The notes: a model not told the origin generated them from the letters alone. 64,000 nucleotides of DNA from a virus (IMGVR_UViG_3300022188_000007:32001-96000), one strand, 5' to 3'; positions 5,807-64,000 are shown, counted from the stretch's first letter. Program-made: numbers and translations.

Positions 5807-5821
5807 GAGGAAGTAAATTTA

Positions 5822-6037: not shown

Positions 6038-6132
6038 GAGGTTAATCGAACATGATCATCTACCATAATGAAAATCTTACTGGTTTAAATAAAATAGGGG
6101 CTTTAACCAGTAGCCCGTTAAAGGAGAATAAA

Positions 6133-6870: not shown

Positions 6871-6885
6871 AATAAATTACGGTAG

Positions 6886-7281: not shown

Positions 7282-7293
7282 AGGAAAAGAATT

Positions 7294-39794: not shown

Positions 39795-40802
39795 ATGCTG
39801 CTAGAGGATGAGGAAGTTGAAAGACTTATTACAAGAATTTCTACAGGAGTAAGCATTAGTATAATTGGAGATAAACCAATTGTATTTAAATTCCCTAGCA
39901 ATATGGTTAAATTAGAAGCTGATGTTCTTTATGATAAAGAATACCAAGACGCTATTGATAATGGCCTATTAAATAGATCCTCATTAGAAGAATTAATTGA
40001 AAAAAGAAATTTATTCACTAGAGAGGATCAAAAGAAATTGGATGGCTTGAAAACAAAGCTAGAAGGGCAAAGAATTTTACTTGCCAAAACTACAGTTGTA
40101 AAAGCCAATCAATCTAGAATTAAGGGAGTTATGGCAAAATTAAAATCTGAGATTTATGAGCTTACTACCCAGAAGACTTCCAAGCTTATGATGTCTGCAG
40201 AAGTAAAAGCTAACGAAGAGAAGTCATTATTCCTATGTTGGAGATGTACTTTTAGAGCTGATAAATTATTATGGAAAACTTTTAAAGATTTTAAACACAC
40301 TACTGATTTAAAATTTAGAGATAAAGTTTTAACTCCATTCCTTATATTTTATTCTGGTTTATCAGCGGATGAGATTAGATTTATTGCTCGTCATAATCTT
40401 TGGCGAATTAGGTATGTTAATAGTCAAAAATTATCTGAAGCTTTATTTGGAGTTCCTTCTACAGAATATACAACTGATATGTTAAGTTTAGCATATTGGT
40501 CAAACTATTATGATAATATATACCAAATGATGTCGGAAGATAGACCTAGTGATTTAATTATAGAAGATGATGAAGCACTTGATGCTTTCATGAAAGCTTT
40601 TTACGAGGAAAGGACCCGCGAGGACGCCGCAAGGCGAAGTAAAAGTAGGTCACCAGGTAAACTATCAGCATTTGATTCCGAAGAAGTTATAGTAACAGCT
40701 TCTAATGAATTGTACCAAGATATAGAATATGATACTCCAAGAGAAGCCCAAAAACTTAAAGAGAGAAATGAAATTAAAAAAAGGACAAAGAGGACTGGCT
40801 AG
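39795..40802 (+). CDS. Putative tail assembly chaperone (pre-tape-measure)
   Basis: Directly upstream of the tape-measure gene. N-terminal half resembles the preceding gene. WSNYYDNIY...PSDLIIEDDEALDAF. Confidence 0.55.
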   Translation: MLLEDEEVERLITRISTGVSISIIGDKPIVFKFPSNMVKLEADVLYDKEYQDAIDNGLLNRSSLEELIEKRNLFTREDQKKLDGLKTKLEGQRILLAKTTVVKANQSRIKGVMAKLKSEIYELTTQKTSKLMMSAEVKANEEKSLFLCWRCTFRADKLLWKTFKDFKHTTDLKFRDKVLTPFLIFYSGLSADEIRFIARHNLWRIRYVNSQKLSEALFGVPSTEYTTDMLSLAYWSNYYDNIYQMMSEDRPSDLIIEDDEALDAFMKAFYEERTREDAARRSKSRSPGKLSAFDSEEVIVTASNELYQDIEYDTPREAQKLKERNEIKKRTKRTG

Positions 40803-40867: not shown

Positions 40868-43800
40868 TTGGTTAAAAAATATATATTCGAACATGCTTCA
40901 AATGAATCTAAAACATCTAGTAAGAGCGGAGGTTCTAAAGGCGTAGCGGTTGTAGAACTTTCCAAATCCGATCAAGCAAATCAGAAAAAAGTCCATGATG
41001 GCTTAAGAGAGATCAAGGAAGTATTAAAAAAACAAACTAAAGACACTTCTAGTAGCGCACTAATGCGCATGCTGGAAAAAGTCATAAAGGCTTCAGGCCA
41101 ATCTTCTAAGATAAGTTCGGCAGAACTTAAAACACTAGCCACAGCTTTCGCAAATGAACTCTCACGCAAGGGTTTTGGAGGGAGTGGTAGTGCTACAGTT
41201 TCCGGCCCACAGGGCAAAGCCTTAGATCCTAATATTATTGCTAAAGCAATAAGTAACCAAATAGCCCCAGCCCTGAAATCAGTTTTCAAATCTTTAGAGA
41301 CTAAAGATATTAAAATTGATCCTAAATCCCAAGAAGCTCTTCGTAAAGCGATGGAGTCTTCTGTATCTGATATTATCCCTTCAAAATTCTATAAAGTAAT
41401 AAATGACTTAAATTCTACACTTACCTCTGTGTTGGCGTTAAGTAAGACTAGCTTAAAGGCGTTTAATTCTGCAAAAGGAATGGCCTCTGACAAAGGCGGT
41501 CTTGAAGTAAAAGAGATTACTGGTTTTTATACTAATTTAAAAAAAGGAAGTAGCGAACTAAAAACTTTAGTAGGTCATATCAGTTCTCTTGTAAGAGAGG
41601 CAGATAAGCTTCCAGCTGAGCTTAGGGCTGCCGCCAAAGGTATGATAGACGCCGCCAGAGAAGCAAAAGATAAAACGGTACGTGGTGCTAGGGCGGTTCG
41701 TGAGGGAGCTCAAGTCCCTCAAGCCAAACTTGTTAAAGAGGTTACTAAACTTTTAGCTTCAGAGATAAAAAAACACACAACTGGTTCCACCAATCCAGCC
41801 GTCAACAATCTTATAAAAGCCCTTGATACTTTTAGTTCTAGCGCCGATGAGTTGACTAAATTAACTAAAGCACTTGATAATTTTGGAAAATCTATAGGCT
41901 CATTACAGTCAGACGGCGGAGTAGACCTAAAAGGCCTTCAAGGTGTATTGGGTAAGTTAGAAAAGACTATTAGTGCTATACCAACAGAAATTAAAGGTGG
42001 GGCTGTAAAAAGTGATGAGTGGAAGGATTTCATAGATCAGGCTAATAAAGTTATAAACACTGTAAAAACATTAGTTGTAAAGATTCAATTACCTAAAGAT
42101 GAAATAGATAGGTTCGTGAAACAGTTACCAGGTGAGTTTGACGTGGTAGCTAATATAGACATTTCTAATGTGCCTAAGGCTATAAAAGAAATAACTAAAC
42201 CGGTAGGTATACCAGTTAAGACTATCTTTTCTGCAGATGACATACAGAGGCGATTACGTTATGAGCATCCTGAAATTAGTGTAACCCAGCGAATCACAAC
42301 AGTTCATAAACAAGTCGAGGAATACCAATCTTCTAAGTCAGGTAAAGCCGTTAAAGAAGTTAGTTTACCTAATGCTAAGAGTGAAGCAGTTAAATTTTCT
42401 AAGGATCTTAATACTAGTGTAAATAATCTAATAAAAGTCTTAGAAGGGCTAAGTAAAGTTCATGCCACTGCTTACGGGAAACCGGTAGCTCAAGGATCAG
42501 CAGGAGATATAGCTAGTGATAGAATATCAGAGTTAATACATAAAATCCAAGACAAGAGAGGTAATACCTCTCAATTAAGGGAGTATGTAGATAAAACTCA
42601 AGGCCATGCCCATAAGACAGGAATACTTAGTCAGGCTGCCAGAGATGGGATTAAAGAGGTATATGAGATATTACACTCTACAACTGATGATGTTTTTAAT
42701 TCAGTTAAAAAATCTTCAGATCAAGCAACAAAGAATCTTGAGAGTGTAAGTAAGGCCTTTGATGCTGTAAATAAATCTTCGAAACAAATGGCAGACACCG
42801 CTAAAAATAATTTAGCTCAAACCCAACCATCTACAATACCTAGTAGTAGGCATGGAGCAACGTCAGTTAACACTGCCAGACAGGCACCTGCTTCTACTCA
42901 AAAGGAAGTATATAAATACTTTGAAGGTAATATCACACCTGGCAAGACAGCAAATATTGATGCAGGTAAGAAGTTAAATCTTGGAGAGGATTCTAGGAAG
43001 ATAGTTCAAGAGCATGTAAGCGGTTTAGCAAATTCGTTGTTAGACTTACAGTCGTATATGGTATCAACCCTTGAGAAAGAATTTGCTAAAGTACGTAAGG
43101 AAAGCAACTCTGGTAAAGATTGGAGGATAGTAGGTAAAACTGATACTGGCTCTATATCCGATTATTTTAAACTCACTGAAGGGTATAATCAAAAAACTTC
43201 AGGCAACGAGTATAGTTTTAAAATTGCGGATGTAAAAAATCTTAAGAGGGTTACTGGTAGTAAGACTAATGACCCCACAGCATTGATTAGTAAATTTAAA
43301 GAAGGGGTGTTTAAAGAGTTATTAGCTAAGAATGAAGCTACTATAGCAGAGTCAATTGGTAGATGGATGAAAAGGTTCTCAGAATCAGATATTTCTAGTT
43401 GGAAAGGGTTAGACTCTAGTACAGCAAGGCAATTAGCCGATATCAAATCTACCCATGATAAGGGACAAGGGACCGCACCATCCAAGAGGATGGTAGAGGC
43501 TATAAAGGGGTTAGGGGCTACAGACCCATCCGCCTTAAATAGAATATTTGAAAAGACAATTAGTGACATTGAAGCCACTCGTAGATTAGGCGAGAGAAAG
43601 TATGGCAGCTCAGTTCTAGTTAAGAAAATAGCTATACCAGCAGCTAAATTATCTGCAACTGGAGCGGCTACTATTGACACAGCTACTGGTAGTAAACGTA
43701 TCATTCCTAAATTTGCAACGTATAAAACCGGCTTTGAGAAGGTCTTCGAATCACTACAGAAAACTAAAACTTTTGATGTAGAGCAGGATTATCAAGGTAA

Positions 43801-46800
43801 AGTTAGGAAATTGGGAATCAGGCCTTCCGGCACCCAGTTTGAGGAAGCAAATAAAGTAGCTAAAGCAATGTTGATAGACCTAAGTAGGGTCAAGGATATT
43901 GTAAATGCTACAGGACAGACTACAGTGGATTCAGGCGCTGTTAGGGCTGATCTTGCTAAGCAACTAGAAACCTCCGTCGTATTAAAGGCAGGAAAATTAG
44001 AAAAATCAAAACACGTGACATCGGCTTCCGATGTATTAGCAAAAATAGACAAGAGTATTTATGCTGAGTTTGCTTCGGGCACAAAAACAATGGAAGAATT
44101 CATAGCTGCTACTTCTAAGGCCGGAGTATCTGCTTATGATCTAGTTAAAGGTATGGAGAGTATAGACTTTCAAAATATATACCAAATTTTTCAGAAGATA
44201 CTTGAGGGAACTGACTCTGTTAGTTCACCTCTTAAAGCTGTAGGAAAGAATCCAGATTTTTCTAAGAGTGTGAGGGATTTGGAATCTTATATTGGTAAAA
44301 TGGTGGGCACCATACCTATAGCGGACCCATCTCGCCCAAGACGGGCGTCTCATCAAGAAAAAGTAATTAATCTTATGAGTATGACCTCCCCTATTTACAG
44401 TCAAAAAGGTAAGGTAGGTACACAAGGATTGACCGCAGAAGGCCAGAAACAGTTCCTTAGAGATTTGAACTTATCTTTGCGGGAGTTTGTCAGGGATACA
44501 GCTATATTAAAAGATGCTGGTATGGGGCAGGGTAGATTACCCGCAGATGTTAGGACTCTATCTAGTTTGGGAGTACCTGAATCTCAAGCTGGAACTATAT
44601 CAGAATATAGAAAAGACGGTAGAAATGAAAATACGAAATATCTGGCTGCTCTTAATGCTACGACTGTTAAAATGTATTCTGATTCACTTTCAGAGATGGC
44701 TCCGTTTGGAGCACAATTTCAACAACTAGGTAGGAATATTTCCAACACTACTAATGCTATGGCATATAGACCTGGTGGAGGAGGGGTAGGGACAGACTTC
44801 CCAAGTTTACGTTCTGAGAGAGAAACTAAGTTGATCTCTGGCGGAAGGTACGGCGACAAAGGTTACGGTTTTAATGTTATAGCAGAGTTAAGAAACACCG
44901 CCTCTACTTTTGAAGATCAGATAGTAATATCAGGGAAGCTTGCTGATGTATTAACTTCTGTAACTAAGACTATAGTTCAACCAGATAAATTAGGTAGATT
45001 GAATTTAGTTGGTTCAGATGGCCAAGTGTCCTCATCACAGGAAGGTAGGGTAGGAGATATTAAACCTGATCAACAGTTAATAGGTGCTATTGAAACCGCC
45101 AATAAAGTATTTCAGGATGTTCTAGGAGTTAAACAAGAGTACAGAGGTAGAGCTGATAACGCACTTATCAAAGAGGTAACGAGTGCTTTAACTACCGTTA
45201 GAGGTAAAGATGTGCAAGTCCAGTCAGCCAAAATAGCTGAAACTTTTTTTAACCACTACGGTAGAAAGTTTACTACTAGGTATGGGTCCAAGGGTGTTTC
45301 TATAACAGCTCCTGGCGGTACAGGTGAATTAACAGGTAAGCAGTTAAAAGATTTATATGCGGATAAGAAAGTAAAAGTTTTAAGTAAGTCTGAAAGAGCT
45401 ACTGCTGGATTAGGGACTGTAGCTTTACCTAAAAGTATGGGACAATTAGTGCAGGAAATATATAAGGAGTATGCTAAAGAATTAGGACTATCTAACGCGG
45501 ATCTGGATGAGTCTCGTAAAGCGCTTATTAATAGTGGTAATAAATTCATGCTTAGTATGTTCACTGATTCATCCTTAGGGGTAGTTCCTGAAGGCAAAGA
45601 CGTAAAAGCACAACAGACTTTATTTACTAAAACAAAAAAAGCTTTAGCTAAGTTAGATTTTGATTTAGCTAAAGATATTAGCGGTATAGAGGGCTTAATT
45701 GAAGTTTATAAAGGAATGGATGGCTCTAAATTATATGAAGAAAAGCCTATAGATATTCGTATTAGTTCTCATGGTATTGCTAAGCGTGGACTTCAGGCTG
45801 AGAATCTAGAAGCTATAATGAATAATGTCATAGATGCTGGAGTTGCAGGTTCTACATCTTTAAAAACTAAATTTGACCCAAGTACTTATAAAAGATTATT
45901 GGGTACAGAAGAAGACACTACTGGTAAATTTCCAAGTCTTAGTGAGATTAGTAAGGCTTTAGGTTTTGAGAGTCAAGGTAATCCTAAAAAAAGAGGTCTC
46001 TTAGTCAAGGACATGATGAAACTACTTAAATCTAGAAATGTCCCGGGCACTGAGGATAAGTTACTAGCACAAGCCGGAAAACTAGCTGATTTGGAGATTG
46101 GATCTAGTTTCTATAGTGATATGCGAGATGAGTTTGGAAAGAGCAGGAAGAGCCTAATAGGGCCCAAATTCGTTGAAGTAATCGAAGACCCTAATGCAAA
46201 TCCAGCATGGAGCGAAACTGATATAAAGAAACAGGTAGCCGGCCAGAAGATAAATATACCTGCCTTCGGCGCTTATGCTACTGTATTTGGCGAGCAATCC
46301 CAATTCATTAAACAGATGACCTCATCTATTCCTTTAGACTCTAAGAAGCACTGGGAGTACTTAAAAGCTCTACAGGTATTAAATGATGACAGTTCAGAGA
46401 TGGCAACGCAGTTGTTATCCTCTGCTCAAGAGGTAGACGTAAGTAGTTTAAGAACCTTTACAAAATCTACTGGAAAATTTGTATCTAGAGCATCAATGTC
46501 TAATATAACTGAGATGCCTGAAGAAGATCAAGAGAGGGTTTTAAATGATACTATATTGGATATTGCAAAATTTCCTGGAGCAATGAATTTAAAAATACCT
46601 AGTACTAAAGATCCTTCTAAACGTGAATCTTTTTATGTACCAGGTGCATTAGCTCGTACTACTTACCCTGAACCTTCTTTGGCAGGAGAACGCGGCCTAG
46701 ATATGACGGCTCGTAGATTACAGGCAGTCGTAAACGCGGCAAAGAACGTAGACGAAGTAGCCGGCCAGTCAGATGAGTCAGGTAGTAAAAAGTTATGGAA

Positions 46801-55800: not shown

Positions 55801-58800
55801 AAAACAGGACTATAAAGAAGATTATAGTTCAGACTTTATTGATAAGTATTATGATCCCCTACAAAAGTATAACACAGCCAAATCTGCCTTAGGGGGAGAC
55901 AACGCCTCATTGGACGCCTCAGTATTAGGAGGTCTGGCCGAACAACTTCGAGGCCTACAAGATATTTTAAAAAACAATTCAATAGCTTTTCAATATAGAG
56001 CAGCAATAGAGGATTTAAATAAAGCACTGTATGAGGGGGCTAGAGCCACAAGGAAAAGTATACTTGTAGAACAAGAAAGGCAAAAAGTTGATAAACATAC
56101 TGCTGGGTTTATGCGCGGTAAAACTAAAGGCGTGGCTTCTATTGATCAGGGGGTTACTAACTATAAAGATTTAAATGATCAGCAAAGAGCCTCGTTAATG
56201 TTTAAAGATTATGATGCCCTAGCAAAGAAAATTCTTGTACAAGAGACTAGTATTGAAGGCTTAATAGGCCAGTCTAAGTCAGTTGCAAGCACCTATGCGG
56301 ATATCCAAGAGATAGGTAAAGCTCCTGAAGGTTTTGATGCAATAATGACTAGGGGCCGTAATGTTGAGTTAATGAGTATTATGGATAAAGTAGATAACGA
56401 TAAGGGGGCTGCTCAAATTTCAATGAGAGTTTCGGAACTGAAGTCTCCTTTAGAGGGTATTTTAGCGAACACCGACATAATGGCCGCCAATACCTATGGA
56501 AGACCAGGGGATATTAAAAGAGCTGCAGCTACTGCAGAAGAGAACTTAGTTATAGCCGAACAAAGGAAGCTTGCAGGTAAAGGCCCATTGGATAATACTG
56601 TTGACAATAAAACTGATCCAGTGAAAACATTCAAAAGTCTTCAGAAACTAATGACCATCAGAGACGCCGCCGCAAAGGAAGGAGATACTGTTACTGTACG
56701 TGCACTGGACAATACACTTGCTGATTCTTATGGTAGGGCTTTGAAAGTATATGGTATGAAGGATTTTGCTAGGTTAACTAAACTAGTTGCTCCTACCAAG
56801 TTTTTTTCTTCCAATAACAAGGAATTAGTGGCATCAAGGGCATCCGCTTTAGCACAAAAAGGTATAGGTACAACTCCAGACAGAATGATGCAATCTATAG
56901 AGTCTGCTAAGATGGCAAAAGCCGCCCTAAGGACTCAGAGCTTTATTGATAAGTTAACTGCCTTTAAAGCCCCTGAGAAAGAGATCGAGCGTGCAAAGAA
57001 TAGGCAGTGGTATGTACCTTCTAAAGAAGTAAGGGACTATGAAAAAGCCTACGCAACAGATCCCAGTAAACCACTAATAAATCCTAAAATATTTGAGAAG
57101 GCTCTAATCGCTGGAGCAATACTTCCTGCTTTTCAGGGGAAATCTTTGGGTGAGAAGAGAACTACTATAGAAGATCAAATAAACAGGTTACAGAAACAAA
57201 AAGATAATTACCCTAAGGAAGGTAAAGAGGCTGAAAAGCTAGGGATTGATAAAAAAATAGAAGGCTATCAAAAGATATTAACGGATGATTTAGATCCTCA
57301 ACAATTTGTAACTTCCACTTTACAAGGGCTATCAACAACAGCACTTGCTGCATACGAAGGGGTGGGAATATTCGGAGGCTCCCAGTCTGATAAAGAAAAT
57401 ATGGCTGCCGTAGGTGCAGGTCTTTTTGTTATAATGAAATCACTAGAGTCTAGAATAGGTAAAGACAATATGCCACAATATTTCAAGGACTTTTCTAAAG
57501 AAGCAGTGGATAAGATTAAGATCGCGGTTGAAACAGGAGATTACTCTGATATGGCCAATGATCTAGGTAAAAAAACCAAAAAGTTTTTAAAGGGTTTTAA
57601 TAAGTCCATGGAAGCTCAAACCGAAAAGGCGGAAGACGCAGGCATTGACCCTGAGAAAGACATTAGAGAACGTCGTAAAAGACTAAAAAAGTTAAATGCT
57701 ACCCTGGATCTGGAGAGTACTACTAAGTCTCTTAATGAGGTCACTGATGTAGGGAGCAACAATTTGTTGAGAGGGTTAGAAGCCATAGCAGTTGTAATGA
57801 CTGCGCAAGCAGTTGGGGGCTGGAAATCTAAAAAAGGGGAAACAGCAGCCAGAGTCAAGGATGGTGTAAACGTAGCTAAACAACAAGGTCTAGCTTCTTT
57901 AGCTTACTCTGAAAAGAATGCTGCAGCCGTAGATGCCTACATAGGAAAGCTTGTACTGACCCAAAAGGAGTTGGCAGAGAAGAAAGGTCCTGATGGCGGA
58001 GCAATTAATATAGTTATGGATGTTATGGAGGACTTTAAAACTAGTTTAACATTGGCTGCTGCCGAAGGTAAAACACTTGAGGAAGCAATGTCAGGGCTTC
58101 AAGATAAAATAGGTGACACTAAAGTTTTTACCGGTATTTACACAGATGTGGCTAAATTAATAGGAGCTATGGAGAACTTTAGAGCAGAACTTCAAAAATC
58201 ATTTACAACTTTTGATGATAAACGTTTATTAGATCCTACACGTTCTTTAAAGGGAGAGTTATTGGGTTTTGGGGGCGAGACAACTCTTCCAATAGGTAGA
58301 CGTGACATGTCGACTCAACAAAGAGCTTACGCAGGTGGGTCAGACTCCTTAAGGTCATCCTTTGCAGTAATGTCTAAAGGGATTTTGATACAAGAGGCCC
58401 AAATAAAAACTTTAGGTTTTGTTAGATCTCAGATAGCTGACACTGAACAAAATATAGATTTTGGTACCAAATATGGAACATCTGATTCACAATTAGAAGC
58501 TTGGGAGATGCACTTAAAGGGGCTTGAAGGCACTCTGGCTAACTTACAAAACGTGACTACTTTAACTAGCCAACAGTTGCAGGCGTTGGGTACTTCTATG
58601 CGAGGGGCTATTAAGTACTCAGAGGCTATCAACAAATTAAATGATGCTTTGGCAGATGTTTCTGTGGAGCACGCTGTAACTGGTATAACAGGATTAAAAA
58701 CTTATTTTGATTCTTTTGAGGTGTTGCTAGGTGGCTCAGATCCGTTAGCCGCCCAACCTGTTTCACCAGAACAAGAAAGAATGGGAGCTAAGGTAGGAGT

Positions 58801-61800
58801 AAGATTAGTTTCTGGTGAATCAACCTCTATGGATATAGAACGTGCCCAGTTACTCACAGAGATAAAGAATGCCACAGACTCTAAATCTAGAACTGCTGCT
58901 AGTATAAAACTAGGAGATCTTGATGAGAAGTATAGAAGGTTAGGTATTGATAAAGAACAACAAGTCGAGAACCAGCGGCTTGGTTCTACTATGAAGCCTT
59001 ATGAGGATTTTTACCGTAATATGGAAGGGTTGTTAGGAAGTAATGAATTAAATGATAAACAATATGGAGAAATTAGTGGCGTTAAAAATGAATTTAAAGA
59101 AGCCATGAAAAGAGCTACGGAAAAAATACCTATAGATGAGGCAATAGCTCAGCTGGAAGGGCAAAAAGACAACTTAGGGGCTAATCAATTCAAGGAAGCC
59201 ATGAAAGAATTAGTGGCAATGAAAGCAACAGGGACTACACAAGTATATAGAGGTATGGATAGAACCAAAGACTGGCAAGGTATTATGAGTAGAGTCATGG
59301 CAGGTTATGATAAAGAAATAGATGCATACAAGGCTGCAACCGGTACTACTGATTTAGATACTTCTTTAGAAAACATGGTAACTAACCCACTAGTAAATGT
59401 TATTGGGATGTCTAATCTACTTCTAGCTGAATTAGTGACACACTTTGTAGACAAAAAAACTGCGGCAGACATACTCAATGGGCCTCAAAAAAAAGAGTTA
59501 GAACCAGATTACTTATTTTCTTCAATAGTCCCTGATAAAAAAGTTGTATTAGCAGAAGCACAAGATTTTCTGAAAGGCATTAGTATTAATCCTGCGGACA
59601 ATTTAAAAACACAGCCATATGATTTCAATAACGACAATATTGATCCAAATAGAGGCCGCCCTACATTGTTTGGTAGACCTGTAGGTCCAATAAGTAAAGA
59701 TGCGCTTGGGTTGCCTCCAATACAAGATAAGGTAGTACCTCCACCTCCAACAGAGGTCGAATTAGCTGCTAAAAAGCATCCTAGGTTTAAGGAAATGGAG
59801 ACTTACGTGAAAAATATAAGCCTTGATCCTATAGCTAATTTAAAAACAGAGCCATTTGGCCCTAATTCTGAGCAAGACAATTCACAAATTGTAGCTGTAA
59901 ATGAACTTCAGTTAGTAACTCTAAAAAAAATAGCTACCAGTCTTAGCAGTAATGGTTCTGGTGATTCCACTGAACCTACTACTAAAGCCGCAGGCGGAAG
60001 AATCTTTGGAGAAGGTGGTCCAAGAGAAGATAAGGTACCCGCTTATTTAAGTCCAGGAGAGTTTGTAATAAGAGCAGCTGCTGCACAACGGCTTGGTTAT
60101 GAGAATCTAGATGTAATGAATAAGAAAGGGCAGGTCCCTGTGGCTTTTGAGAGTGGGGGCTCCTTAAACCAGAGGCACATAACACAAGCACATCAGTATT
60201 TTGTAGATCCTGATGCGGTACTGCCCCCAGAGTTTAATCCAGAGTCAGAGCTATATAATAAAGGAATAACAGGTAAATATATTGATTTACGGAAGTCAAT
60301 GCTTTCTGAAGAACAGCGGGAAGCTGTTGCAGGTATCTCCACATTAAAGGGATTATATAATACTTTTTCTGATATGGCTGGTAATGATGAGGATAAATTA
60401 AATTCTTTATTTCCTGAAGATATAATGCCTGTAATGGAGCGTTTCGAAGAGAACAAAAAAGCCCAAGAAGAGAAAGGTATATTGGGTTGGATGAAAGGAA
60501 AATTAAAAACCAAAAATAAGGCAACAGCAGGTGCAAGGGCAGTTACAGGCCTTGATAAGGCCGAGTTATTAAAAGAAATAAGTACCTATGCTGACGGTGG
60601 CCGAACCATTAGTACTGTTACTGGTAAACCTATACCCACAGCAGAGGAAACAGAAGAGGGTATGGCAAAGATGCGAGAAGCTTTAGGTTTTGTAGCTTCT
60701 GTAGGTCACCCAATTACTTCTATCCCCACCTCTATCTATGGCATGTATCAAGGTTTTAAAGAAAAAGGTCTTAGTGCCCAACCAGCTGTTGAAGGTTTTG
60801 GGGGCTTAGAACTATTAAATTATATACCACAGGCTAAAAGACTCGGTAAAATGAAAACAATTTTAAGTAAAGGTTTTGGTAGATATTTTGATAACGCAGG
60901 GGACGTGAATGATTATTTTGATATTACTGGTAAGTTAGGGGGTAAACTAACTTCATCACACGGAGATGATTTTGACGCGTTACTAGCTTCCGAGAATACT
61001 TTTGAGGAGGGCGGCTTATCTCTTTGGGATAAATTACTGGGTAAACAGTTCGATCCTACAGAGAGATGGAAGGGTAAAAAGTTACCATCAGGTATGGGAA
61101 AATTTGATAAACCTGAGGTGACAAAAAAATTAGAAGACGAAATAAAAGCTACAAAACGCCATGATGTTCATTCTTTTAGTTTCCTACGCGAAAAACATGG
61201 TTTTGTGAAAGCATTACAACTTTATGGTGCAGGATCTCGTTTACAAGAAGGGGCAGATATATTAAAGAAGGCTGATGGTGGTAAGATAAGAAGTTTTATA
61301 GGTGATTCCACAGGAGTAGCAGAGGTAGGAGAAGAGTTATTTAATGAAAGAATCAATGCCCCTGTACTAACTCGGTCTGTGGCCAGTATGATTAAATCAG
61401 AGTTTGGCACCTCAGACGTAGGTAACAATCAATTAGGTGCGCCAGTAGATAAATTAATGGGCACTTCGTTTGATCCATCTGCTACCATGTTAAAAGATAG
61501 TAGAGCTTTTACAGCTGTTGGTAATAATATAAAATCATATGCTTCTACAGCCGATTTTAATACCGGTAGAGCGAAGTCTGATAAATTGAAGGGCAATATA
61601 GGTAAAGGTAATATAATCCCAGGTATGGATGGATTAACCTCTATATATGATGGATTCTTAACTTCCAAATACAATAGCCCCTTCTTATCGCAAGAAGAGC
61701 AATCCAACAATAGGGCTTGGTATGAAGCCACTAGAGAGCAAGAGATAACCAATAAACAGAAATATGAATTATTAGGTGATGCAAAAACAGACGCAGATAG

Positions 61801-64000
61801 GAAACAGCTTACTGACTACTGGCAGTCTGTGGGTAAGGCTGCTCCAAGTAAGTTTGCTGATGGAGGGAATGTCGATGAAGAAGAGCCTGTGATTGAGTGG
61901 GGACATACTACTGCTAAAGCTGTCATGGATAAATGGACAGCGGAAGCTAAAGATGCGGCTATGTATAGATCGTTACATGCTATGTCTAGTGCTGAAGATT
62001 TTGCATTAAAATTGGATAGAAATAAAAAAGCTAGAACCGACATGACCAGAATTCTAGCTGATAACGAATACTTAGATAAAGACACCCAAGAAGGGTATGA
62101 TTATTCATTTGATAAACACCGAGGATTAAGAATACTTACTGATGAAGATTCGGGGGTGAAGGTAGGTAGAGTAATTACTAAGTCATATCGTTCTGTAGAT
62201 GAAAGTTATAGACCTAGATCTATGGCAACTGTTAAGAAACAAGTACATGACCCATTTGCTATATCCGAAGATGCTTATTCTTCTGGCGCGCTTACTGATT
62301 TCTCCGAGAGATTATCTCTAGACAGTAACTATGGTAATGAGGCTTTTAGGTACCACGGTGAGGGCCGTGATATATGGAAGAATATGCAACGCTATAAGAA
62401 ATTATTTTATGGCTCTCCGGGTGAAAGTAAAGCATCTGAAGGGTATTTAGCAAAATTTCAAGCAGGCCAAAAGAACCTTGATAAAGTACGTTTAGTGATG
62501 AAGGTTTTAGAAGAAGGTGGTAATATTTATGATGACTCCAGACTTCAACAGAAAGTGGGCGGACCAGCTAGGTTAGAGGCTTTTGATTTTGGAGGTAAGA
62601 AAGGTACTGTAGATATACCTACTAGAAATTTCAAAAGAGCTGAACTACTTAAAGAATTACAAGCGTTATATGGGGATGAATCTCAAGGGGCCATCATTAG
62701 TGCTGAGAGGATAAAGAATGAAATCTCCGCTTTAAACGCGCAGAAAATAGAAACTTCTGATGGTACAGTGGAATACATAAGGGCAGATGAACAGAAATAT
62801 ACGTCTGTTTTACAGGATATTAAAGACGCCGCCGTAATTGCACGAGGTGAGTTAGATCCTAAAGGCAAAAATGCAAGAAGACGGGCTGTTACAAGAGCTC
62901 AGTCCCCTCTATTATATAATTATTCTAATACGCTACGGGACAAAGAATTGGCAAGAGCAGGGTTCCTAAAGCAGACTGGCCCACCGAAAGATTTTTCCGA
63001 CTTCGATAAAAAAGATATTCCAGATATGAAAAAATGGCTGGCTGCTGGAGATTATGGCTATGTAACTAGTGACACAGTGCAACGAATGAAGGACTTTATT
63101 ACGAGTGAGACATACAATGTGGGTGGTGTAGCTACTAGATCTATGCCAGTTAAACATTTTGGCGGTGTGGTAACACAAACTGGCCCAGTATTTGCTCAGA
63201 AAGGTGAATACATTATACCTAAAGGATTTAAAGATGGTACTTCGGGTTTGGGTGGTGTAACCTCCAGTCCAGCTTCCCAAGCTTTAACTTCAGGATCGAT
63301 GAGATTAGATGGTTCTGAGGTATTATCACAATTAAATAGTTTAAGTTTAAAGGTGGATAATACTACGGTTAAGGTAGACACTACTGAGGCAGCAAGTAGA
63401 CTATCATCTTCTATTAGTGATGCTTTTAGTGGTATAGAACCATTTAAAGTAGAAGATAAAACTCTATTAGTAGAAGATAAGGTTTTCTCAGTAGAAGATA
63501 AAAAGTTAACTGTGGAAGATAAAACTTTTACTATTGAAGATAAAACTTTTAAGGTAGAGGATAAAATTTTCTCAGTAGAAGATAAAAAGTTAACTGTGGA
63601 AGATAAAACTTTTACTATTGAAGATAAAACTTTTAAGGTAGAGGATAAAATTTTCTCAGTGGAAGACAAAAAATTAACCGTGGAAGACAAGGTTTTTACT
63701 ATTGAGGATAAGGTTTTTAAGGTAGAGGATAAAATTTTCTCAGTGGAAGACAAAAAATTAACCGTGGAAGACAAGGTTTTTACTATTGAGGATAAGGTTT
63801 TTAAGGTAGAGGATAAAGTACTAACAATAGATGCTTCTAATATTTCAGTAGATATCGGCGATGCAGAGGCTAGATTAGCTTCAGCGATTAGCAATGCGAT
63901 TAGTAGTGCGGTAGTTAATATAAAAGTTGAGGCCCCTACTACTGGAGGGTCAGTCGGCGCGGATAAATTCGATCAGTTAGCCCAAACAGTATCAGATGTA
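40868..64000 (+). CDS. Giant tape-measure polyprotein (at least 7,711 aa, 3'-truncated): two-barrel RNA polymerase + PD-(D/E)XK nuclease + tape-measure core
   Basis: TTG 40868 follows a G-rich RBS. The same frame reads sensibly everywhere I translated it, from MVKKYIFEH... to ...DKFDQLAQTVSDV at 64000. The ORF track lists no closed ORF in this frame, which implies no stop codon. Confidence 0.9.
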   Translation, partial: MVKKYIFEHASNESKTSSKSGGSKGVAVVELSKSDQANQKKVHDGLREIKEVLKKQTKDTSSSALMRMLEKVIKASGQSSKISSAELKTLATAFANELSRKGFGGSGSATVSGPQGKALDPNIIAKAISNQIAPALKSVFKSLETKDIKIDPKSQEALRKAMESSVSDIIPSKFYKVINDLNSTLTSVLALSKTSLKAFNSAKGMASDKGGLEVKEITGFYTNLKKGSSELKTLVGHISSLVREADKLPAELRAAAKGMIDAAREAKDKTVRGARAVREGAQVPQAKLVKEVTKLLASEIKKHTTGSTNPAVNNLIKALDTFSSSADELTKLTKALDNFGKSIGSLQSDGGVDLKGLQGVLGKLEKTISAIPTEIKGGAVKSDEWKDFIDQANKVINTVKTLVVKIQLPKDEIDRFVKQLPGEFDVVANIDISNVPKAIKEITKPVGIPVKTIFSADDIQRRLRYEHPEISVTQRITTVHKQVEEYQSSKSGKAVKEVSLPNAKSEAVKFSKDLNTSVNNLIKVLEGLSKVHATAYGKPVAQGSAGDIASDRISELIHKIQDKRGNTSQLREYVDKTQGHAHKTGILSQAARDGIKEVYEILHSTTDDVFNSVKKSSDQATKNLESVSKAFDAVNKSSKQMADTAKNNLAQTQPSTIPSSRHGATSVNTARQAPASTQKEVYKYFEGNITPGKTANIDAGKKLNLGEDSRKIVQEHVSGLANSLLDLQSYMVSTLEKEFAKVRKESNSGKDWRIVGKTDTGSISDYFKLTEGYNQKTSGNEYSFKIADVKNLKRVTGSKTNDPTALISKFKEGVFKELLAKNEATIAESIGRWMKRFSESDISSWKGLDSSTARQLADIKSTHDKGQGTAPSKRMVEAIKGLGATDPSALNRIFEKTISDIEATRRLGERKYGSSVLVKKIAIPAAKLSATGAATIDTATGSKRIIPKFATYKTGFEKVFESLQKTKTFDVEQDYQGKVRKLGIRPSGTQFEEANKVAKAMLIDLSRVKDIVNATGQTTVDSGAVRADLAKQLETSVVLKAGKLEKSKHVTSASDVLAKIDKSIYAEFASGTKTMEEFIAATSKAGVSAYDLVKGMESIDFQNIYQIFQKILEGTDSVSSPLKAVGKNPDFSKSVRDLESYIGKMVGTIPIADPSRPRRASHQEKVINLMSMTSPIYSQKGKVGTQGLTAEGQKQFLRDLNLSLREFVRDTAILKDAGMGQGRLPADVRTLSSLGVPESQAGTISEYRKDGRNENTKYLAALNATTVKMYSDSLSEMAPFGAQFQQLGRNISNTTNAMAYRPGGGGVGTDFPSLRSERETKLISGGRYGDKGYGFNVIAELRNTASTFEDQIVISGKLADVLTSVTKTIVQPDKLGRLNLVGSDGQVSSSQEGRVGDIKPDQQLIGAIETANKVFQDVLGVKQEYRGRADNALIKEVTSALTTVRGKDVQVQSAKIAETFFNHYGRKFTTRYGSKGVSITAPGGTGELTGKQLKDLYADKKVKVLSKSERATAGLGTVALPKSMGQLVQEIYKEYAKELGLSNADLDESRKALINSGNKFMLSMFTDSSLGVVPEGKDVKAQQTLFTKTKKALAKLDFDLAKDISGIEGLIEVYKGMDGSKLYEEKPIDIRISSHGIAKRGLQAENLEAIMNNVIDAGVAGSTSLKTKFDPSTYKRLLGTEEDTTGKFPSLSEISKALGFESQGNPKKRGLLVKDMMKLLKSRNVPGTEDKLLAQAGKLADLEIGSSFYSDMRDEFGKSRKSLIGPKFVEVIEDPNANPAWSETDIKKQVAGQKINIPAFGAYATVFGEQSQFIKQMTSSIPLDSKKHWEYLKALQVLNDDSSEMATQLLSSAQEVDVSSLRTFTKSTGKFVSRASMSNITEMPEEDQERVLNDTILDIAKFPGAMNLKIPSTKDPSKRESFYVPGALARTTYPEPSLAGERGLDMTARRLQAVVNAAKNVDEVAGQSDESGSKKLWNTVGRIKKRLAGYRGRVKGIVGESPGTKQLTSGEVGELEGILSTLLVTLDQSSADERMLYKNQQHLKGGTRGDVIRAFKDNKSGEGKSQAQVYQTTIDQAVDQLIGPQGSPDPKNPQWASRYDKQANVLGGKAYNAGLASVEQFAKSLNVQPSDSEDDLKKALQSLERAKIEYYNTLATSALGKTGSVQEFLFNRKMPAVMGKAINATVDKTEDLDNFSKELLSISSSAGGIGVDLSALEEASENIKKIKIEHAENVESARSKGMPVLTQHQVGIPESYASKLPTNFARRYEVDGGTVQELKKPIFEKSNLAKMLDYREEIQGALDNVAPGMRSKMEAYLESELSPYLESMRFPVTGVASIQPYEAKLLKQGEGRQMTKHTLMAPGMPEIDMGKFDAAKKQVDSVIDELTEQRKLEYKEESPDLERINQLTATIAALDKAISDVIPKFIAVQQNLDFDGDQIQLHAAKTALARQEISQHFKTITDYDKQGGTTAQALRDQSTYKALIPSTEKYTLAEQQIAFSKKFPEKEGFGFMTKPFLTEGLDYLKPQEQLDILSTFPGAGGTENTPLTVLNNLLPELFRNEKHMAKIAMTLQAVKPEAGKDTASSQALLNALAKMKPVEDQPSSGREKAVFEEGIKTKLYDTKMTNAINANFFKLNTGQDTEALNRQLKLFERNLGYGGGVIRQGAQYEPTANLASRFPLDLKSMGNTMGEELHTMMNEFLRVGVQKGLDVKHAGETPIATEMANLISKGSPGVSSLIEKINAGEGSYGDLTDFAEANKKSLGRRLGGMSTEDLYLDAASIAGGRGESTTKLDPGNREELKEYITKSIGFEGFLHELSNQVIEAAHEGLMKSVSAWSDTKKQKEFKGSSAEDYVKASIRKQLKGDGINILDSAESPLMPLYKMRTSGASGYQQRGLYQDKYGDVEAPELEGIFQGKEADAYAAKYKEAKAVAKNIQDALIDFSSNKGGNKKGSYSMLLESSIENIYADQKEIMKLVQEMTLEKDRTSSSVMDRLSGDAPMHGFAREALGKKNSKTQKEFLEKYSRIVGVPSLGQESTALLKQEYLPQAAFLANAEKGPAPLQGETTDGAYQDILDAHDKAVDKLKEQYLADAIVIAQTDNILKAAKTKTGEATFLTQLLPTSKGDYASKSYDDRRQRISQIAKEKVQRANFEQLTHPRGLERDAFGRSMPSGGGPGGPGALSVGGTGPIVDVNIASVAEGVGVFLGRAAGMAKTTEDTSPRFTISEELEKKLVRAEEIVDEITGGLNKATGDSFANKYRASGLKGGQGLDQINEIKKQMQGIKAGRKARDILDSSSLLGTGIHAKLEDSYKKEYITERPVRYDSVAGEISGTVDAIKYDDNEIATHIVDIKTTSQKNYDDLKQAVARFQEKTGKETPTLDEIKDYVGKNLKDSKLGDVASQLNLYLAATSEDAKASAHFYSRTNPDQEPIKLDQFFDKERLDNDVAAVGQARREIKLEGGSFAKTASYTEAEEIEVLLKKKEVAEATIAELIATSTEYYTLVTKQGLRARKNLPSTGGLSDKSLNMIGTRAREFQAQSVKFDDMVTANPIAEGRETYKVHQNLNVLHERAKYFQQKEGYETSGPRFDKMHPQIQERVTEHGEKGPGGAAFSALVTELKDTGKIEGGEINAAWKAYRLAVGDYFVKKMAAARKELDNTDPGADNIVNVFGAYQKSVQAFQDFAKHGLGKPTDIYTYNKQYLHAESARGAGIYMDSAALQKKASQPLGEDPTLRNIFQNMTNLEGDSVPIPRDSVRAALEDLMDMDRSLINLYTNAEKVAHMGKDINLGWNFDKVKGGLSRLRAALDLQLKQPVGELYNEDQITYLRTVLKELKGLETIYISLDLDTDSFKNPTGEYKFPTLVPVPKQLSRDQQSAMHYQNIEKIKGHYRTPEAEGGAREGDSFVYNAKTFGPSGKQMDNQRFVISKYGEAINSAGKSVPILKSRLDNLNKSLVDGNRTFSVAIERVVKWGAAATLVYGGLSYIKDAVKHMSDVETAMARLQMVMNPLTTDFDSLQKAALGFAKQYGVETTDVLGSMKVFAQQGLSQGEVEERTQTSTLAANVTTLSAVDATEALTAAMKVFRAEGESSMRFLDSWSQVEARAAITAGDLADAIKKSASAGRNAGFTFDELNGMVAAIGSTTRQTGKEVGTSLRFIFRRISADKGPKALKGVGVATTTPKGTLRPGYKVLEDLAGKWEELEQAQKLSIAQAIGGTRQYNQVLVLMDNWDQVVKSTTDSMNAKGSAERRNLKLMKTYSKQLEQTKAVFSALKVEVGKVVLPSFKAGLTGIRGLVEAVNNVPASFKLAGAGMVLFVGYITKGAEALNTIMSLVDRTKLSFSALKDDFSKGIDKGMFEVFGKGTPELDSDLFGLSKLSDTGTVNIDDMESSLGKLAFGALSAGQAFNKFAGIVGSDSASAVSAVGKYVTAFGALVEKTGTGISLIPGIPGPVDEAVGVATSFTGKAIKGTGGAFDFVGDKVGKGAQSWMEGFASQNTSAMKSMAPLLGTLGGIALLAPTIIDAFKNLTQSATDYKDEQLNRLEVDAKEIDSLQGLITSYKNLQDQKEKITRLSDPKVQAKGIKRGEYKSPILEKIDALKATRTFDSNLGAMDPSMIAGFDEFGRVILSNTANLTGYLEELKRAKTVTLALSKLKIAARFTDDLTETGGNQEWKQQVKSLAAEFPLIGEMLAKNITVGPKKALEVIREELDQLLAAKAEAPMSTAFDSDIERSLTAHAKVLKTFSATYAELGKTLSSISTEGATVTDIADLYKSPDALKTFDLQAAYEDKYQIAEVRGTVSGRDIAASKVLRTQSSGLGSYIEASSVLTEANLFSAGRLPRKPKKDGTIGASDNDLVTLNKNFAEKYGIATGQATLKIGKDHKLFLEFIDALTTTPTTKEFSQAEIEAAARAFFPVDEILQKAQISVTKLNTFVAGASAGILGVSEKKLNTRQFDLGERFYDQIPTNVLLQTEKGYNTKTGTFGKQDYKEDYSSDFIDKYYDPLQKYNTAKSALGGDNASLDASVLGGLAEQLRGLQDILKNNSIAFQYRAAIEDLNKALYEGARATRKSILVEQERQKVDKHTAGFMRGKTKGVASIDQGVTNYKDLNDQQRASLMFKDYDALAKKILVQETSIEGLIGQSKSVASTYADIQEIGKAPEGFDAIMTRGRNVELMSIMDKVDNDKGAAQISMRVSELKSPLEGILANTDIMAANTYGRPGDIKRAAATAEENLVIAEQRKLAGKGPLDNTVDNKTDPVKTFKSLQKLMTIRDAAAKEGDTVTVRALDNTLADSYGRALKVYGMKDFARLTKLVAPTKFFSSNNKELVASRASALAQKGIGTTPDRMMQSIESAKMAKAALRTQSFIDKLTAFKAPEKEIERAKNRQWYVPSKEVRDYEKAYATDPSKPLINPKIFEKALIAGAILPAFQGKSLGEKRTTIEDQINRLQKQKDNYPKEGKEAEKLGIDKKIEGYQKILTDDLDPQQFVTSTLQGLSTTALAAYEGVGIFGGSQSDKENMAAVGAGLFVIMKSLESRIGKDNMPQYFKDFSKEAVDKIKIAVETGDYSDMANDLGKKTKKFLKGFNKSMEAQTEKAEDAGIDPEKDIRERRKRLKKLNATLDLESTTKSLNEVTDVGSNNLLRGLEAIAVVMTAQAVGGWKSKKGETAARVKDGVNVAKQQGLASLAYSEKNAAAVDAYIGKLVLTQKELAEKKGPDGGAINIVMDVMEDFKTSLTLAAAEGKTLEEAMSGLQDKIGDTKVFTGIYTDVAKLIGAMENFRAELQKSFTTFDDKRLLDPTRSLKGELLGFGGETTLPIGRRDMSTQQRAYAGGSDSLRSSFAVMSKGILIQEAQIKTLGFVRSQIADTEQNIDFGTKYGTSDSQLEAWEMHLKGLEGTLANLQNVTTLTSQQLQALGTSMRGAIKYSEAINKLNDALADVSVEHAVTGITGLKTYFDSFEVLLGGSDPLAAQPVSPEQERMGAKVGVRLVSGESTSMDIERAQLLTEIKNATDSKSRTAASIKLGDLDEKYRRLGIDKEQQVENQRLGSTMKPYEDFYRNMEGLLGSNELNDKQYGEISGVKNEFKEAMKRATEKIPIDEAIAQLEGQKDNLGANQFKEAMKELVAMKATGTTQVYRGMDRTKDWQGIMSRVMAGYDKEIDAYKAATGTTDLDTSLENMVTNPLVNVIGMSNLLLAELVTHFVDKKTAADILNGPQKKELEPDYLFSSIVPDKKVVLAEAQDFLKGISINPADNLKTQPYDFNNDNIDPNRGRPTLFGRPVGPISKDALGLPPIQDKVVPPPPTEVELAAKKHPRFKEMETYVKNISLDPIANLKTEPFGPNSEQDNSQIVAVNELQLVTLKKIATSLSSNGSGDSTEPTTKAAGGRIFGEGGPREDKVPAYLSPGEFVIRAAAAQRLGYENLDVMNKKGQVPVAFESGGSLNQRHITQAHQYFVDPDAVLPPEFNPESELYNKGITGKYIDLRKSMLSEEQREAVAGISTLKGLYNTFSDMAGNDEDKLNSLFPEDIMPVMERFEENKKAQEEKGILGWMKGKLKTKNKATAGARAVTGLDKAELLKEISTYADGGRTISTVTGKPIPTAEETEEGMAKMREALGFVASVGHPITSIPTSIYGMYQGFKEKGLSAQPAVEGFGGLELLNYIPQAKRLGKMKTILSKGFGRYFDNAGDVNDYFDITGKLGGKLTSSHGDDFDALLASENTFEEGGLSLWDKLLGKQFDPTERWKGKKLPSGMGKFDKPEVTKKLEDEIKATKRHDVHSFSFLREKHGFVKALQLYGAGSRLQEGADILKKADGGKIRSFIGDSTGVAEVGEELFNERINAPVLTRSVASMIKSEFGTSDVGNNQLGAPVDKLMGTSFDPSATMLKDSRAFTAVGNNIKSYASTADFNTGRAKSDKLKGNIGKGNIIPGMDGLTSIYDGFLTSKYNSPFLSQEEQSNNRAWYEATREQEITNKQKYELLGDAKTDADRKQLTDYWQSVGKAAPSKFADGGNVDEEEPVIEWGHTTAKAVMDKWTAEAKDAAMYRSLHAMSSAEDFALKLDRNKKARTDMTRILADNEYLDKDTQEGYDYSFDKHRGLRILTDEDSGVKVGRVITKSYRSVDESYRPRSMATVKKQVHDPFAISEDAYSSGALTDFSERLSLDSNYGNEAFRYHGEGRDIWKNMQRYKKLFYGSPGESKASEGYLAKFQAGQKNLDKVRLVMKVLEEGGNIYDDSRLQQKVGGPARLEAFDFGGKKGTVDIPTRNFKRAELLKELQALYGDESQGAIISAERIKNEISALNAQKIETSDGTVEYIRADEQKYTSVLQDIKDAAVIARGELDPKGKNARRRAVTRAQSPLLYNYSNTLRDKELARAGFLKQTGPPKDFSDFDKKDIPDMKKWLAAGDYGYVTSDTVQRMKDFITSETYNVGGVATRSMPVKHFGGVVTQTGPVFAQKGEYIIPKGFKDGTSGLGGVTSSPASQALTSGSMRLDGSEVLSQLNSLSLKVDNTTVKVDTTEAASRLSSSISDAFSGIEPFKVEDKTLLVEDKVFSVEDKKLTVEDKTFTIEDKTFKVEDKIFSVEDKKLTVEDKTFTIEDKTFKVEDKIFSVEDKKLTVEDKVFTIEDKVFKVEDKIFSVEDKKLTVEDKVFTIEDKVFKVEDKVLTIDASNISVDIGDAEARLASAISNAISSAVVNIKVEAPTTGGSVGADKFDQLAQTVSDV
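44690..49010 (+). other. Domain: single-chain two-barrel (DPBB) DNA-dependent RNA polymerase, beta-like then beta'-like
   Basis: FEDQIVIS 44909, GRKFTTRYGSKGV 45260, PIDIRISSHGIAKRG 45746, GQKIN 46241, GKTGSVQEFLFNRK 47345, HQVGIP 47609, RFP 47852, NLDFDGDQIQLH 48158, QKGLDVKH 48983. Confidence 0.9.
50635..51240 (+). other. Domain: RecB-family PD-(D/E)XK nuclease
   Basis: GTGIH 50762, E (ITER), GTVD 50858, DIKT 50912, QLNLY 51068. Confidence 0.8.
52742..53820 (+). other. Domain: phage tail tape-measure core (TP901-like)
   Basis: DVETAMARLQMVM...FAKQYG...FAQQG...EALTAAMKVF...DLADAIKKSAS...GKEVGTSLRFIF...DLAGKW...AIGGTRQYN...GSAERRN, followed by hydrophobic Gly/Ala segments. Confidence 0.9.
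63449..63826 (+). repeat. Coding tandem repeat: 18 x 21 bp ([VI]EDKxxx) organised as an 84-bp higher-order unit
   Basis: VEDKTLL-(VEDKxFS-VEDKKLT-VEDKxFT-IEDKxFK)x4-VEDKVLT, read directly. Confidence 0.95.

Follow-up and report, generated by a model that had tools for sequence, protein, structure and literature searches.

What does a single uninterrupted gene of 23.4 kb provide for a phage? This question is raised by a stretch of viral DNA of 64,000 nucleotides (IMGVR_UViG_3300022188_000007:32001-96000; this whole stretch is called the window hereafter), in which one frame of the plus strand, the only large open reading frame (ORF) across its range, is open from a TTG codon at 40868 to the window end at 64000 (7,711 amino acids, aa). 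An earlier note on this DNA had described the frame as running off the window and as a tape-measure protein fused to an RNA polymerase (RNAP) and a nuclease. Extension into the surrounding contig of 144,485 bp confirms the first point and places a stop at window coordinate 64273. The gene (40868..64000, ending at 64273) thus encodes, in the standard code, a full chain of 7,801 aa with 0 cysteines, and contigs from public sequencing runs bridge its domain junctions. The gene is a tail tape measure whose N-terminal 3,500 residues are, in our reading, enzymatic cargo. We consider it probable, at roughly 0.7, that the polymerase and the nuclease are delivered as tape-measure-borne enzymes of an uncultured jumbo phage that lives in hydrothermal-vent and sediment communities. 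Coordinates given below are those of the window, and all features of the gene lie on the plus strand.

Polymerase, nuclease and tape-measure core

Homologs were collected as a set of 43 giant proteins and then as 34 IMG/VR and 80 metagenome loci, and alignments of sub-ranges were built from these sets. Read by eye, the translation holds the motifs TFEDQ (residue 1347), GRKFTTRYGSKGV (1465), RFPVTG (2329) and NLDFDGDQIQLH (2431), which follow each other in beta-then-beta' order. Conservation starts at about residue 650, and a second structural model was therefore begun at residue 660. This AlphaFold2 (AF2) tile of residues 660-1859, based on a 65-sequence alignment, reached a predicted local distance difference test score (pLDDT) of 78.5 and a predicted template modelling score (pTM) of 0.77. 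All of its top Foldseek matches are RNAP beta/Rpb2 chains (E from 5.7e-5, probability about 1.0, 1,100-1,300 columns). VIA-align superposes 400-490 residues at Z 15-16, with model residues 40-1130 running along residues ~10-1100 of the chains, and all 424 chains at Z >=8 are RNAP second-largest subunits. Giant-virus Rpb2 subunits were also returned when the model was searched against BFVD. On these grounds the beta/Rpb2-like half is placed at residues ~699-1824 (42962..46339). Within it, the TFEDQ motif (residues 1347-1351; 44906..44920) has E1349 and D1350 invariant in alignments A1, A3 and A5; its counterpart in E. coli beta is NFEDS. The stretch GRKFTTRYGSKGV (residues 1465-1477; 45260..45298) carries the active-site lysines K1467 and K1475, with R, K, T, K and G invariant, and the best local hhalign match to E. 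coli RpoB, GDKMAGRHGNKGV at 1064-1076, falls on the beta GxKG motif.

The beta'/Rpb1-like N-terminal half with the catalytic double-psi barrel follows at residues 1840-2489 (46385..48334), as placed by VIA-align and Foldseek. Here the model is weaker: the first AF2 tile (residues 1290-2489) has a pLDDT of 73 and a pTM of 0.41, so that the arrangement of domains is unreliable. Nevertheless, its residues 551-1190 align with residues ~20-500 of beta' chains (Z 8.4-9.5, 240-280 residues aligned, 14-17% identity), and the matched chains comprise bacterial beta', archaeal RpoA', the largest subunits of Pol I, II and III and the non-virion RNAP (nvRNAP) of phage AR9. The top Foldseek match of this tile is AR9 nvRNAP (7s01_d, probability 0.90) in a list made up mostly of beta' chains. 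The metal-binding DFDGD (residues 2433-2437; 48164..48178) lies within NLDFDGDQIQLH; D, D, G, D and H are invariant in sets of 28 and 71 sequences, the three aspartates D2433, D2435 and D2437 (NLDFDGDQ) in all 71. The best hhalign match to RpoC, NADFDGDQMAVH at 457-469, sits on the beta' DFDGD motif. For 10 of the 71 members the best-scoring Pfam family is RNA_pol_Rpb1_2 (best E 8e-5), while the window protein itself stays below threshold at 17-19 bits against 25.3. The chain continues with a conserved part at residues 2490-~3000 (48335..49867), to which 33-39 of 42 homologs align and in which K, G, E, N, E, R and K columns are invariant; from its position it is presumed to be the C-terminal half of beta', where the bridge helix and the trigger loop are expected.

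When whole E. coli RpoB and RpoC were compared by hhalign, just the two short catalytic motifs were matched, with low probability. The catalytic residues (E/D, two lysines, R-P-T-G and three aspartates) are, however, invariant among sequences of 26-70% identity. Judged from the models, residues ~700-1825 are a predicted complete beta subunit, joined directly to a beta' part that starts at ~1840, and the polymerase as a whole is a predicted full-length beta-beta' fusion of the multisubunit type, in one chain of ~260 kDa. The earlier note had put an RNAP at residues ~1,270-2,720, behind a non-polymerase N-terminal region of ~1,250 aa. Folds and motifs bear out the polymerase, but not these limits: it starts at residue ~700 and is conserved to ~3,000, the module measures ~2,300 aa instead of the estimated ~1,450 aa, and the region ahead of it shrinks to ~680 aa. 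Beta plus beta' of the Bacillus type are together of about the same size. A tblastn search with residues 1245-2744 found no match in 50,697 deposited phage genomes. The only phmmer match of the same residues among PDB sequences was a WD40 repeat and was discarded as spurious. Two BFVD entries matched the beta model with their first ~1,400 residues, in both cases with poor superposition: A0A8S5SD80_1, a 'Minor tail protein' of an uncultured siphovirus (E 6.9e-5), and A0A6J5NLU4_1, an uncharacterised Caudovirales protein (E 7e-4). Both entries may be additional cases, from deposited phage genomes, of a polymerase fused to a tail protein.

A predicted PD-(D/E)xK nuclease, which the earlier note had located at residues ~3,260-3,450, is found at residues 3231-3476 (50558..51295), with invariant motifs and a profile match. 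In 20 sequences aligned over residues 3230-3480, G3299, H3303, E3317, D3334, D3349, K3351, Q3401 and Y3405 are invariant; the motifs span residues 3299-3405 and come in the order D3334, D3349-x-K3351, Q3401-x-x-x-Y3405. The profile matches Cas4 SSO0001 (PDB 4ic1) at E 1.1e-4, and the motif set G-x-x-x-H, E, D, D-x-K, Q-x-x-x-Y is common to the window domain and the Cas4/RecB nucleases. The window domain differs from them by an insert of ~45 aa between D-x-K and Q-x-x-x-Y, and from Cas4 by being embedded in a structural protein and by the missing four-cysteine Fe-S cluster. Since the chain has no cysteine at all, the cluster of Cas4 proper is ruled out, and the predicted nuclease domain is therefore RecB-like and not a Cas4. 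Pfam PDDEXK_1 matches 5 of the 20 members (best E 4e-6), with the window's own copy at 19.9 bits, below the 22-bit cutoff. When the 43 giants were searched with a hidden Markov model (HMM) of the domain, 39 proved to have it, at the same relative position.

The identity of the protein as a tape measure is given by its core, PF10145 (PhageMin_Tail, TP901 type), which covers residues 4014-4212 (52907..53503) over the full profile 1-201 (E 2e-27; 96.8 bits, cutoff 33.2). From residue ~4000 onward there are also matches to eight PHROG tape-measure families (best E 1.7e-72), in agreement with a core that had been suggested from residue ~3,960. The gene stands in a late operon after head genes and before distal tail and baseplate genes: large terminase (10797-12542), portal (12892-14883) and major head protein (18708-19775) are encoded upstream, and the genes downstream include those of a tail protein and of a 3,391-aa protein, parts of which resemble a baseplate wedge. 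Tail tube and chaperone genes had been proposed directly upstream. This was not confirmed: these genes have no PHROG or Pfam match, and the two ORFs just upstream (39028-39780 and 39795-40802) lack the G/GT -1 frameshift overlap of the tail assembly chaperone type, as their frames are separate from each other and reading would end at a stop codon after a -1 shift at the terminal A-run. Frameshifted tail chaperones upstream of the tape measure are common, not universal, and their absence therefore does not exclude a tape measure.

A family of giant chains and its known counterparts

The fusion is not a singleton. When 1.84 billion representative proteins were searched exhaustively with the beta' profile (HMMER), 110 of them matched, 82 below E 1e-30; as these are clusters at 50% identity, the family counts at least 110. 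Nearly all are giants of 4,000-8,000 aa, and most members have 6,400-8,000 aa and the beta' match at residues ~2,000-3,000. In every hit above 3,900 aa the match lies inside a giant chain, and the shorter hits look like fragments cut by contig ends. Cellular beta', phiKZ/AR9-type enzymes and a stand-alone form of the polymerase were not among the hits in this collection; this polymerase thus seems confined to tape-measure proteins, as their cargo. More than 80 members are full-length, and none of these lacks the fusion. Its carriers are jumbo phages (~235-270 kb) from vent and sediment metagenomes; related viral records measure 189-269 kb, and two of them, G004 with 256,335 bp and G002 with 268,764 bp, are rated 97-100% complete (G002 at 100% by CheckV). 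A second, paralogous RNAP was not found with the beta' profile in five related phage records, where a very divergent or unrelated one would escape. A distant tier of proteins of 4,000-5,600 aa (P0096-P0128) has RxGxKG at residue ~710, DFDGD at ~1400, a PF10145-like core at ~2500 and 0-2 cysteines; the nuclease was not found in these proteins, and they look like a smaller subfamily of the same polymerase/tape-measure fusion.

The slot between the polymerase and the core is variable. One relative (G004) has an open frame of 12,316 aa with 2 cysteines (contig nt 102047-138994; L126:1047-20000 plus L127 and L128); its DFDGD motif is found at residue 1995, and residues 5561-6293 are its tape-measure core. 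It gives no match to the PD-(D/E)xK nuclease HMM and holds instead an RNA_ligase domain (~3027-3181), a LigD 3'-phosphoesterase (~3361-3466) and an RNase H-like domain (~3733-3853). For some other relatives, RNase_T is listed among the precomputed domain annotations; in the relative stretch L118, where this domain was expected, no Pfam match to it was obtained. In two further relatives the frame itself is disturbed. One shifts frame just past the core (L030:18850-18890), so that its database protein P0008 (4,530 aa) represents the upstream part only, and another has in-frame stops within a variable beta' insert (L028:12076-12707); both may be either sequencing errors or natural splits. We found no description of an RNAP, nuclease and tape-measure family in the literature, so that the absence of a precedent for a triple fusion of this size, claimed in the earlier note, holds for the literature, although the protein belongs to a large metagenomic family.

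The closest described system is gp96 of phage P23-45, and it is indeed a precedent for a tape-measure-fused virion RNAP: gp96 is a virion enzyme that transcribes pre-early genes (Chaban et al. 2024, PMC10770324), and its residues 327-1124 form an active, flat, clamp-less two-barrel RNAP (PMC10770324). Common to both proteins are a two-barrel RNAP with DFDGD in the N-terminal part of a giant tape measure, the place of the gene in the late operon, the complete lack of cysteine and an origin from hot or geothermal habitats. The differences are equally clear. The active core of gp96 has ~800 aa, whereas the window module, about three times larger, has ~2,300 aa and comprises full beta plus beta', and gp96 has 5,002 aa without a nuclease, compared to 7,801 aa with one. 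As regards the clamp, the window module aligns to the N-terminal ~500 residues of beta', which hold clamp elements in cellular enzymes, with an unreliable domain arrangement in this model (pTM 0.41). When residues 1-1200 of gp96 were compared by hhalign with the 28-sequence family profile, the probability was 0.2% and no meaningful alignment resulted, at a sensitivity limited by a template that is a single sequence. In the dendrogram of PMC10770324, gp96 belongs to the other major clade, together with phage, plasmid and QDE-1-type single-chain enzymes. Because no similarity to gp96 was detected, the fold is of the multisubunit type and gp96 lies in the other clade, RNAPs were probably fused to tape measures twice, here independently of gp96.

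Other virion polymerases share single aspects. The phiKZ/AR9-type virion RNAPs are likewise cellular-type beta/beta' enzymes without alpha, omega and sigma that are delivered by jumbo-phage virions, but they consist of four or five polypeptides that are ejected from the head and are fused neither to each other nor to a tail protein (PMC7824862). In N4 and in the crAss-like phage phi14:2, the RNAP for early transcription enters the cell as part of a very large virion protein, gp50 and gp66, respectively, and the fusion of giant virion RNAPs to large regions of unknown function has been noted (PMC10770324). However, gp50 is a T7-like single-subunit enzyme of a different fold and gp66 a compact, QDE-1-like two-barrel enzyme, and unlike the window protein neither is part of a tape measure or has a nuclease. 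Beta and beta' 'are fused in some bacteria' (supplement, PMC10770324). These rpoB-rpoC fusions have the same order, beta then beta', with the join in the window protein at about residue 1825-1840. They do housekeeping work in partnership with alpha, omega and sigma and have zinc-binding cysteines, in contrast to the window chain, which has no cysteines and is too divergent to retrieve cellular beta'. The concept itself, multidomain enzymes injected with the parasite DNA for the earliest phase of infection, is that of the polyvalent proteins (Iyer et al. 2017, PMC5512222), in which the cargo cassette also varies between relatives as it does in the window family. That paper never mentions tape-measure proteins (0 occurrences), and the RNAP modules of its polyvalent proteins are solely N4-like.

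Proposed delivery through the tail and alternative explanations

From the composition of the phage's other ORFs, ~99 cysteines would be expected in the 7,801 aa, of which there are none (Poisson P ~1e-43). The whole family has 34 cysteines in 579,319 aa (86 giants) and gp96 has none in 5,002 aa, compared to 7 in the 1,342 aa of E. coli RpoB and 15 in the 1,407 aa of RpoC. A folded beta-beta' enzyme of ~260 kDa is too large for the lumen of a tail tube. We interpret the nearly complete absence of cysteine, and with it of zinc sites and disulfides, as a possible adaptation that lets the protein pass through the tail while extended or partly unfolded. Elsewhere in the phage, the portal protein (12892-14883) also has 0 cysteines in 663 aa, most other large proteins have 0.4-2.7%, and two giants encoded downstream (1,863 and 3,391 aa) have an ordinary content of 39 and 33 cysteines.

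By analogy with P23-45 gp96 and with tape measures in general, we propose that the tail would incorporate a few copies of the protein, oriented with the C-terminus towards the tip and with the cargo closest to the head. During infection, the tape measure would leave the tail before the DNA does, and its hydrophobic part might help to form a channel through the envelope. The polymerase could then refold at the cytoplasmic end and transcribe the genes that enter first, independently of host RNAP or sigma, and possibly it would also help to pull in the genome of ~250 kb. The nuclease would work there too, with either host DNA or the end of the entering genome as its substrate.

Several points weigh against delivery in this form. 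A full-size folded RNAP is unable to sit in a tail tube. The first AF2 tile cut the beta subunit and mis-modelled its beta barrel as low-confidence helices, and Foldseek gave nothing below E 1e-3 for this tile (residues 1290-2489). Residues 2490-3000 matched no family by hhalign or in the ESM Atlas (searched with residues 2440-3050; scores too low or clusters unnamed), so that a complete enzyme is a prediction. Nine upstream and ten downstream neighbours gave almost no matches to PHROGs and Pfam; no sheath was found, and the tail type, a tail-tube gene and chaperone genes were not identifiable among these neighbours. Finally, the contig is partial (144 kb, compared to 256-269 kb for complete relatives and a 318-kb contig recorded for the same protein), so that a second RNAP or a sigma factor could lie elsewhere in the genome.

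The main alternative is a polyprotein from which polymerase and nuclease would be released by proteolysis, perhaps at the Gly/Pro spacer, either to remain in the producer cell as a non-virion RNAP or to become head-packed ejection proteins. The spacer at residues ~3000-3230 is variable, Gly/Pro-rich and marked by a dip in conservation, which would fit cleavage. Moreover, a folded beta-beta' is too large for the tail lumen, tape measures of several phages are processed, and the ruler at residues ~3960-7801 alone would give a tail of ~0.6 µm. Still, we regard processing as unlikely. All of the more than 80 full-length members keep the fusion, no stand-alone polymerase occurs in the 1.84 billion representatives, the cargo is as cysteine-poor as the ruler part, and neither a protease site nor a protease partner was identified. 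In addition, gp96 works as a fusion (PMC10770324).

The polymerase might also serve mainly as a motor that reels the long genome through the tail and the envelope channel, with gene expression being secondary. T7 RNAP imports the T7 genome in this manner, by transcribing the entering DNA. The jumbo genomes of the relatives (235-270 kb) and the position that tape-measure topology would give the polymerase, adjacent to the DNA at the ruler end that faces the head, fit such a role, and a coupling of transcription and translocation was proposed by the authors of PMC10770324. A motor is compatible with transcription of early genes, however, so that there is no either/or, and as the principal function we consider it improbable.

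That the regions resembling a polymerase and a nuclease are inactive relics, retained only as bulk or as ruler length, is very improbable. Similarity to cellular RNAPs is limited to short motifs and no polymerase or nuclease Pfam match of the window protein reaches its curated cutoff, as might be expected of relics. Yet the beta E/D and two lysines, the three beta' aspartates and D, D-x-K and Q-x-x-x-Y of the nuclease are all invariant down to 26% identity, and the folds of whole subunits are retained.

An assembly or annotation chimera of separate genes, for which one might point to the incomplete contig with a poly-G run, a typical sequencing artefact, at its very start (C1:1-15, outside the window) and to a heptad repeat that is unstable in assembly, has next to no likelihood given that single contigs of two public runs span the junctions at uniform depth and that more than 100 independent contigs from many studies show this domain order in an open frame. 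In vent-metagenome run X1, one Logan contig corresponds to 44001-63512 with 1 letter different, and in run X2, also from a vent metagenome, contigs 45460-51849 and 51834-54041 cross the polymerase, linker, nuclease and tape-measure junctions. Both runs may be source samples of the window sequence. Their contigs are broken only at an 84-bp tandem repeat (63452-63817), and because they bridge the junctions, an in-frame stop or a chimera between 49000 and 52700, named in the earlier note as the place where the fusion might fail, is excluded. The same architecture was sought in IMG/VR, and giant open frames are present in 34 of 34 loci there, as well as in 80 metagenome loci. A G-rich, Shine-Dalgarno-like run is located 8-13 nt 5' of TTG 40868; further in-frame starts follow at ATG 41063 and ATG 41069. 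A database copy of the protein (P0001) has an identical start and end, its sole difference being 56 aa fewer in the C-terminal heptad array. Searches for the setting of the phage gave little: a tRNA search found no tRNA genes, no RNA datasets are listed among the public runs that hold the window sequence, and the host search returned only mis-binned contigs of metagenome-assembled genomes (Woesearchaeota, Gammaproteobacteria, Fermentibacteria, Altiarchaeales).

The remaining chain, its neighbours and the tail ruler as a possible vehicle

Outside the enzymes, the chain begins with a helical, poorly conserved region (residues 1-~680; 40868..42907) to which 4-24 of 42 homologs align. Pfam gave only weak matches of the coiled-coil type and no recognised family for it, and an ESM Atlas search with residues 1-660 was uninformative. 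The Gly/Pro linker PSGGGPGGPG, which had been pointed out at ~50375, is read in the translation at residues 3170-3179 (50375..50404), within the spacer. Between the nuclease and the tape-measure core lies a conserved region (residues ~3550-3960; 51515..52747) with 39-40 of 42 homologs aligned and no family match. Behind the core, a Kyte-Doolittle scan shows two hydrophobic, Gly-rich segments (residues 4297-4315 and 4497-4519; 53756..54424) that are candidate membrane-inserting helices. They are followed by the long, mostly helical ruler (residues ~4520-6370; 54425..59977), into which the PHROG tape-measure profiles reach and which is conserved to about residue 5100 and variable beyond.

The C-terminal part was described correctly in the earlier note, which had seen GG-punctuated modules from residue ~6,370 and heptad repeats at ~7,530. 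Modules with xADGG/GG punctuation (59978..63307) are found from residue 6374, and a block at residues 6374-6432, which includes the motif PREDKVPAYLSPGEFVI, has 59-65% identity in relatives. VEDKxFx heptads at residues ~7527-7660 are encoded by the 84-bp tandem repeat (63452..63817; Tandem Repeats Finder: 4.4 copies, 93% matches). The near-identical database protein has two 28-aa units (56 aa) fewer in this array; the copy number of the repeat is unstable, being either variable or unresolved in assembly. At ~0.15 nm per residue, the predicted tail would measure between ~0.6 µm, if only the ruler part counts, and ~1.2 µm for the whole chain.

Several neighbouring genes deserve mention in their own right. 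Two paralogous HNH endonuclease genes (29349-30215 and 33913-34785; PHROG 559/681, E 1e-23 to 1e-28) lie within the structural block and are likely homing endonucleases. Two adjacent proteins (24530-25573 and 25584-26723) both begin with an Mtd_N domain (major tropism determinant, N-terminal), the second with an additional weak BclA_C match, and a Peptidase_C92 / NlpC-P60-like amidase is encoded nearby (27779-28354). On the same contig, upstream of the window, there are cargo genes unusual for a phage: a 957-aa hybrid sensor kinase with SBP_bac_3, PAS, HisKA, HATPase_c and receiver domains (L035:15270-18143), a caspase-like Peptidase_C14 (L036:6310-7173, E 5e-35) and a PIN-PhoH protein (L036:12042-13394). 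The two further giants of 1,863 and 3,391 aa are encoded downstream (L038:4624-10215 and from L038:10645 onward; genome 117624-133820).

The variable slot between polymerase and core invites a more far-reaching and, at present, doubtful idea, namely that it is a swappable 'first-responder' cassette that works together with the sigma-less polymerase. In the clade of the window, the RecB-type nuclease might act as an exonuclease that resects the first-entering genome end to a single-stranded 3' tail, and such a tail would let a core-like beta-beta' enzyme start RNA synthesis without promoter melting or an initiation factor. In other clades the slot would be filled by an RNase T-type exonuclease, or by an RNA ligase, a 3'-phosphoesterase and RNase H, a set that might serve the injected repair of RNA damage inflicted by the host. 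A cysteine-free composition, seen independently in gp96, could then be a general rule for enzymes that thread through a tail.

As a tape-measure-fused virion RNAP, the protein stands out by the size and type of its enzyme, by the nuclease with the variable cassette, by the breadth of the family and by a chain free of cysteine. As the only described tape-measure-fused polymerase, gp96 (2024) could pass as an oddity of a thermophile; at least 110 clusters change this picture. With 7,801 aa here and up to 12,316 aa in a relative, these chains are among the largest predicted phage proteins, with predicted tails of 0.6 to more than 1 µm. They pose a physical puzzle, how an enzyme far wider than the lumen is stored and delivered, for which the lack of cysteine shared with gp96 is a testable clue. 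A single-chain beta-beta' without sigma, alpha, omega and zinc would be a minimal model of a multisubunit polymerase and a new branch in the debate on RNAP origins. The variable cassette, with nuclease, RNase T, RNA ligase, phosphoesterase and RNase H, suggests that the tail ruler can serve as a general vehicle for nucleic-acid enzymes.

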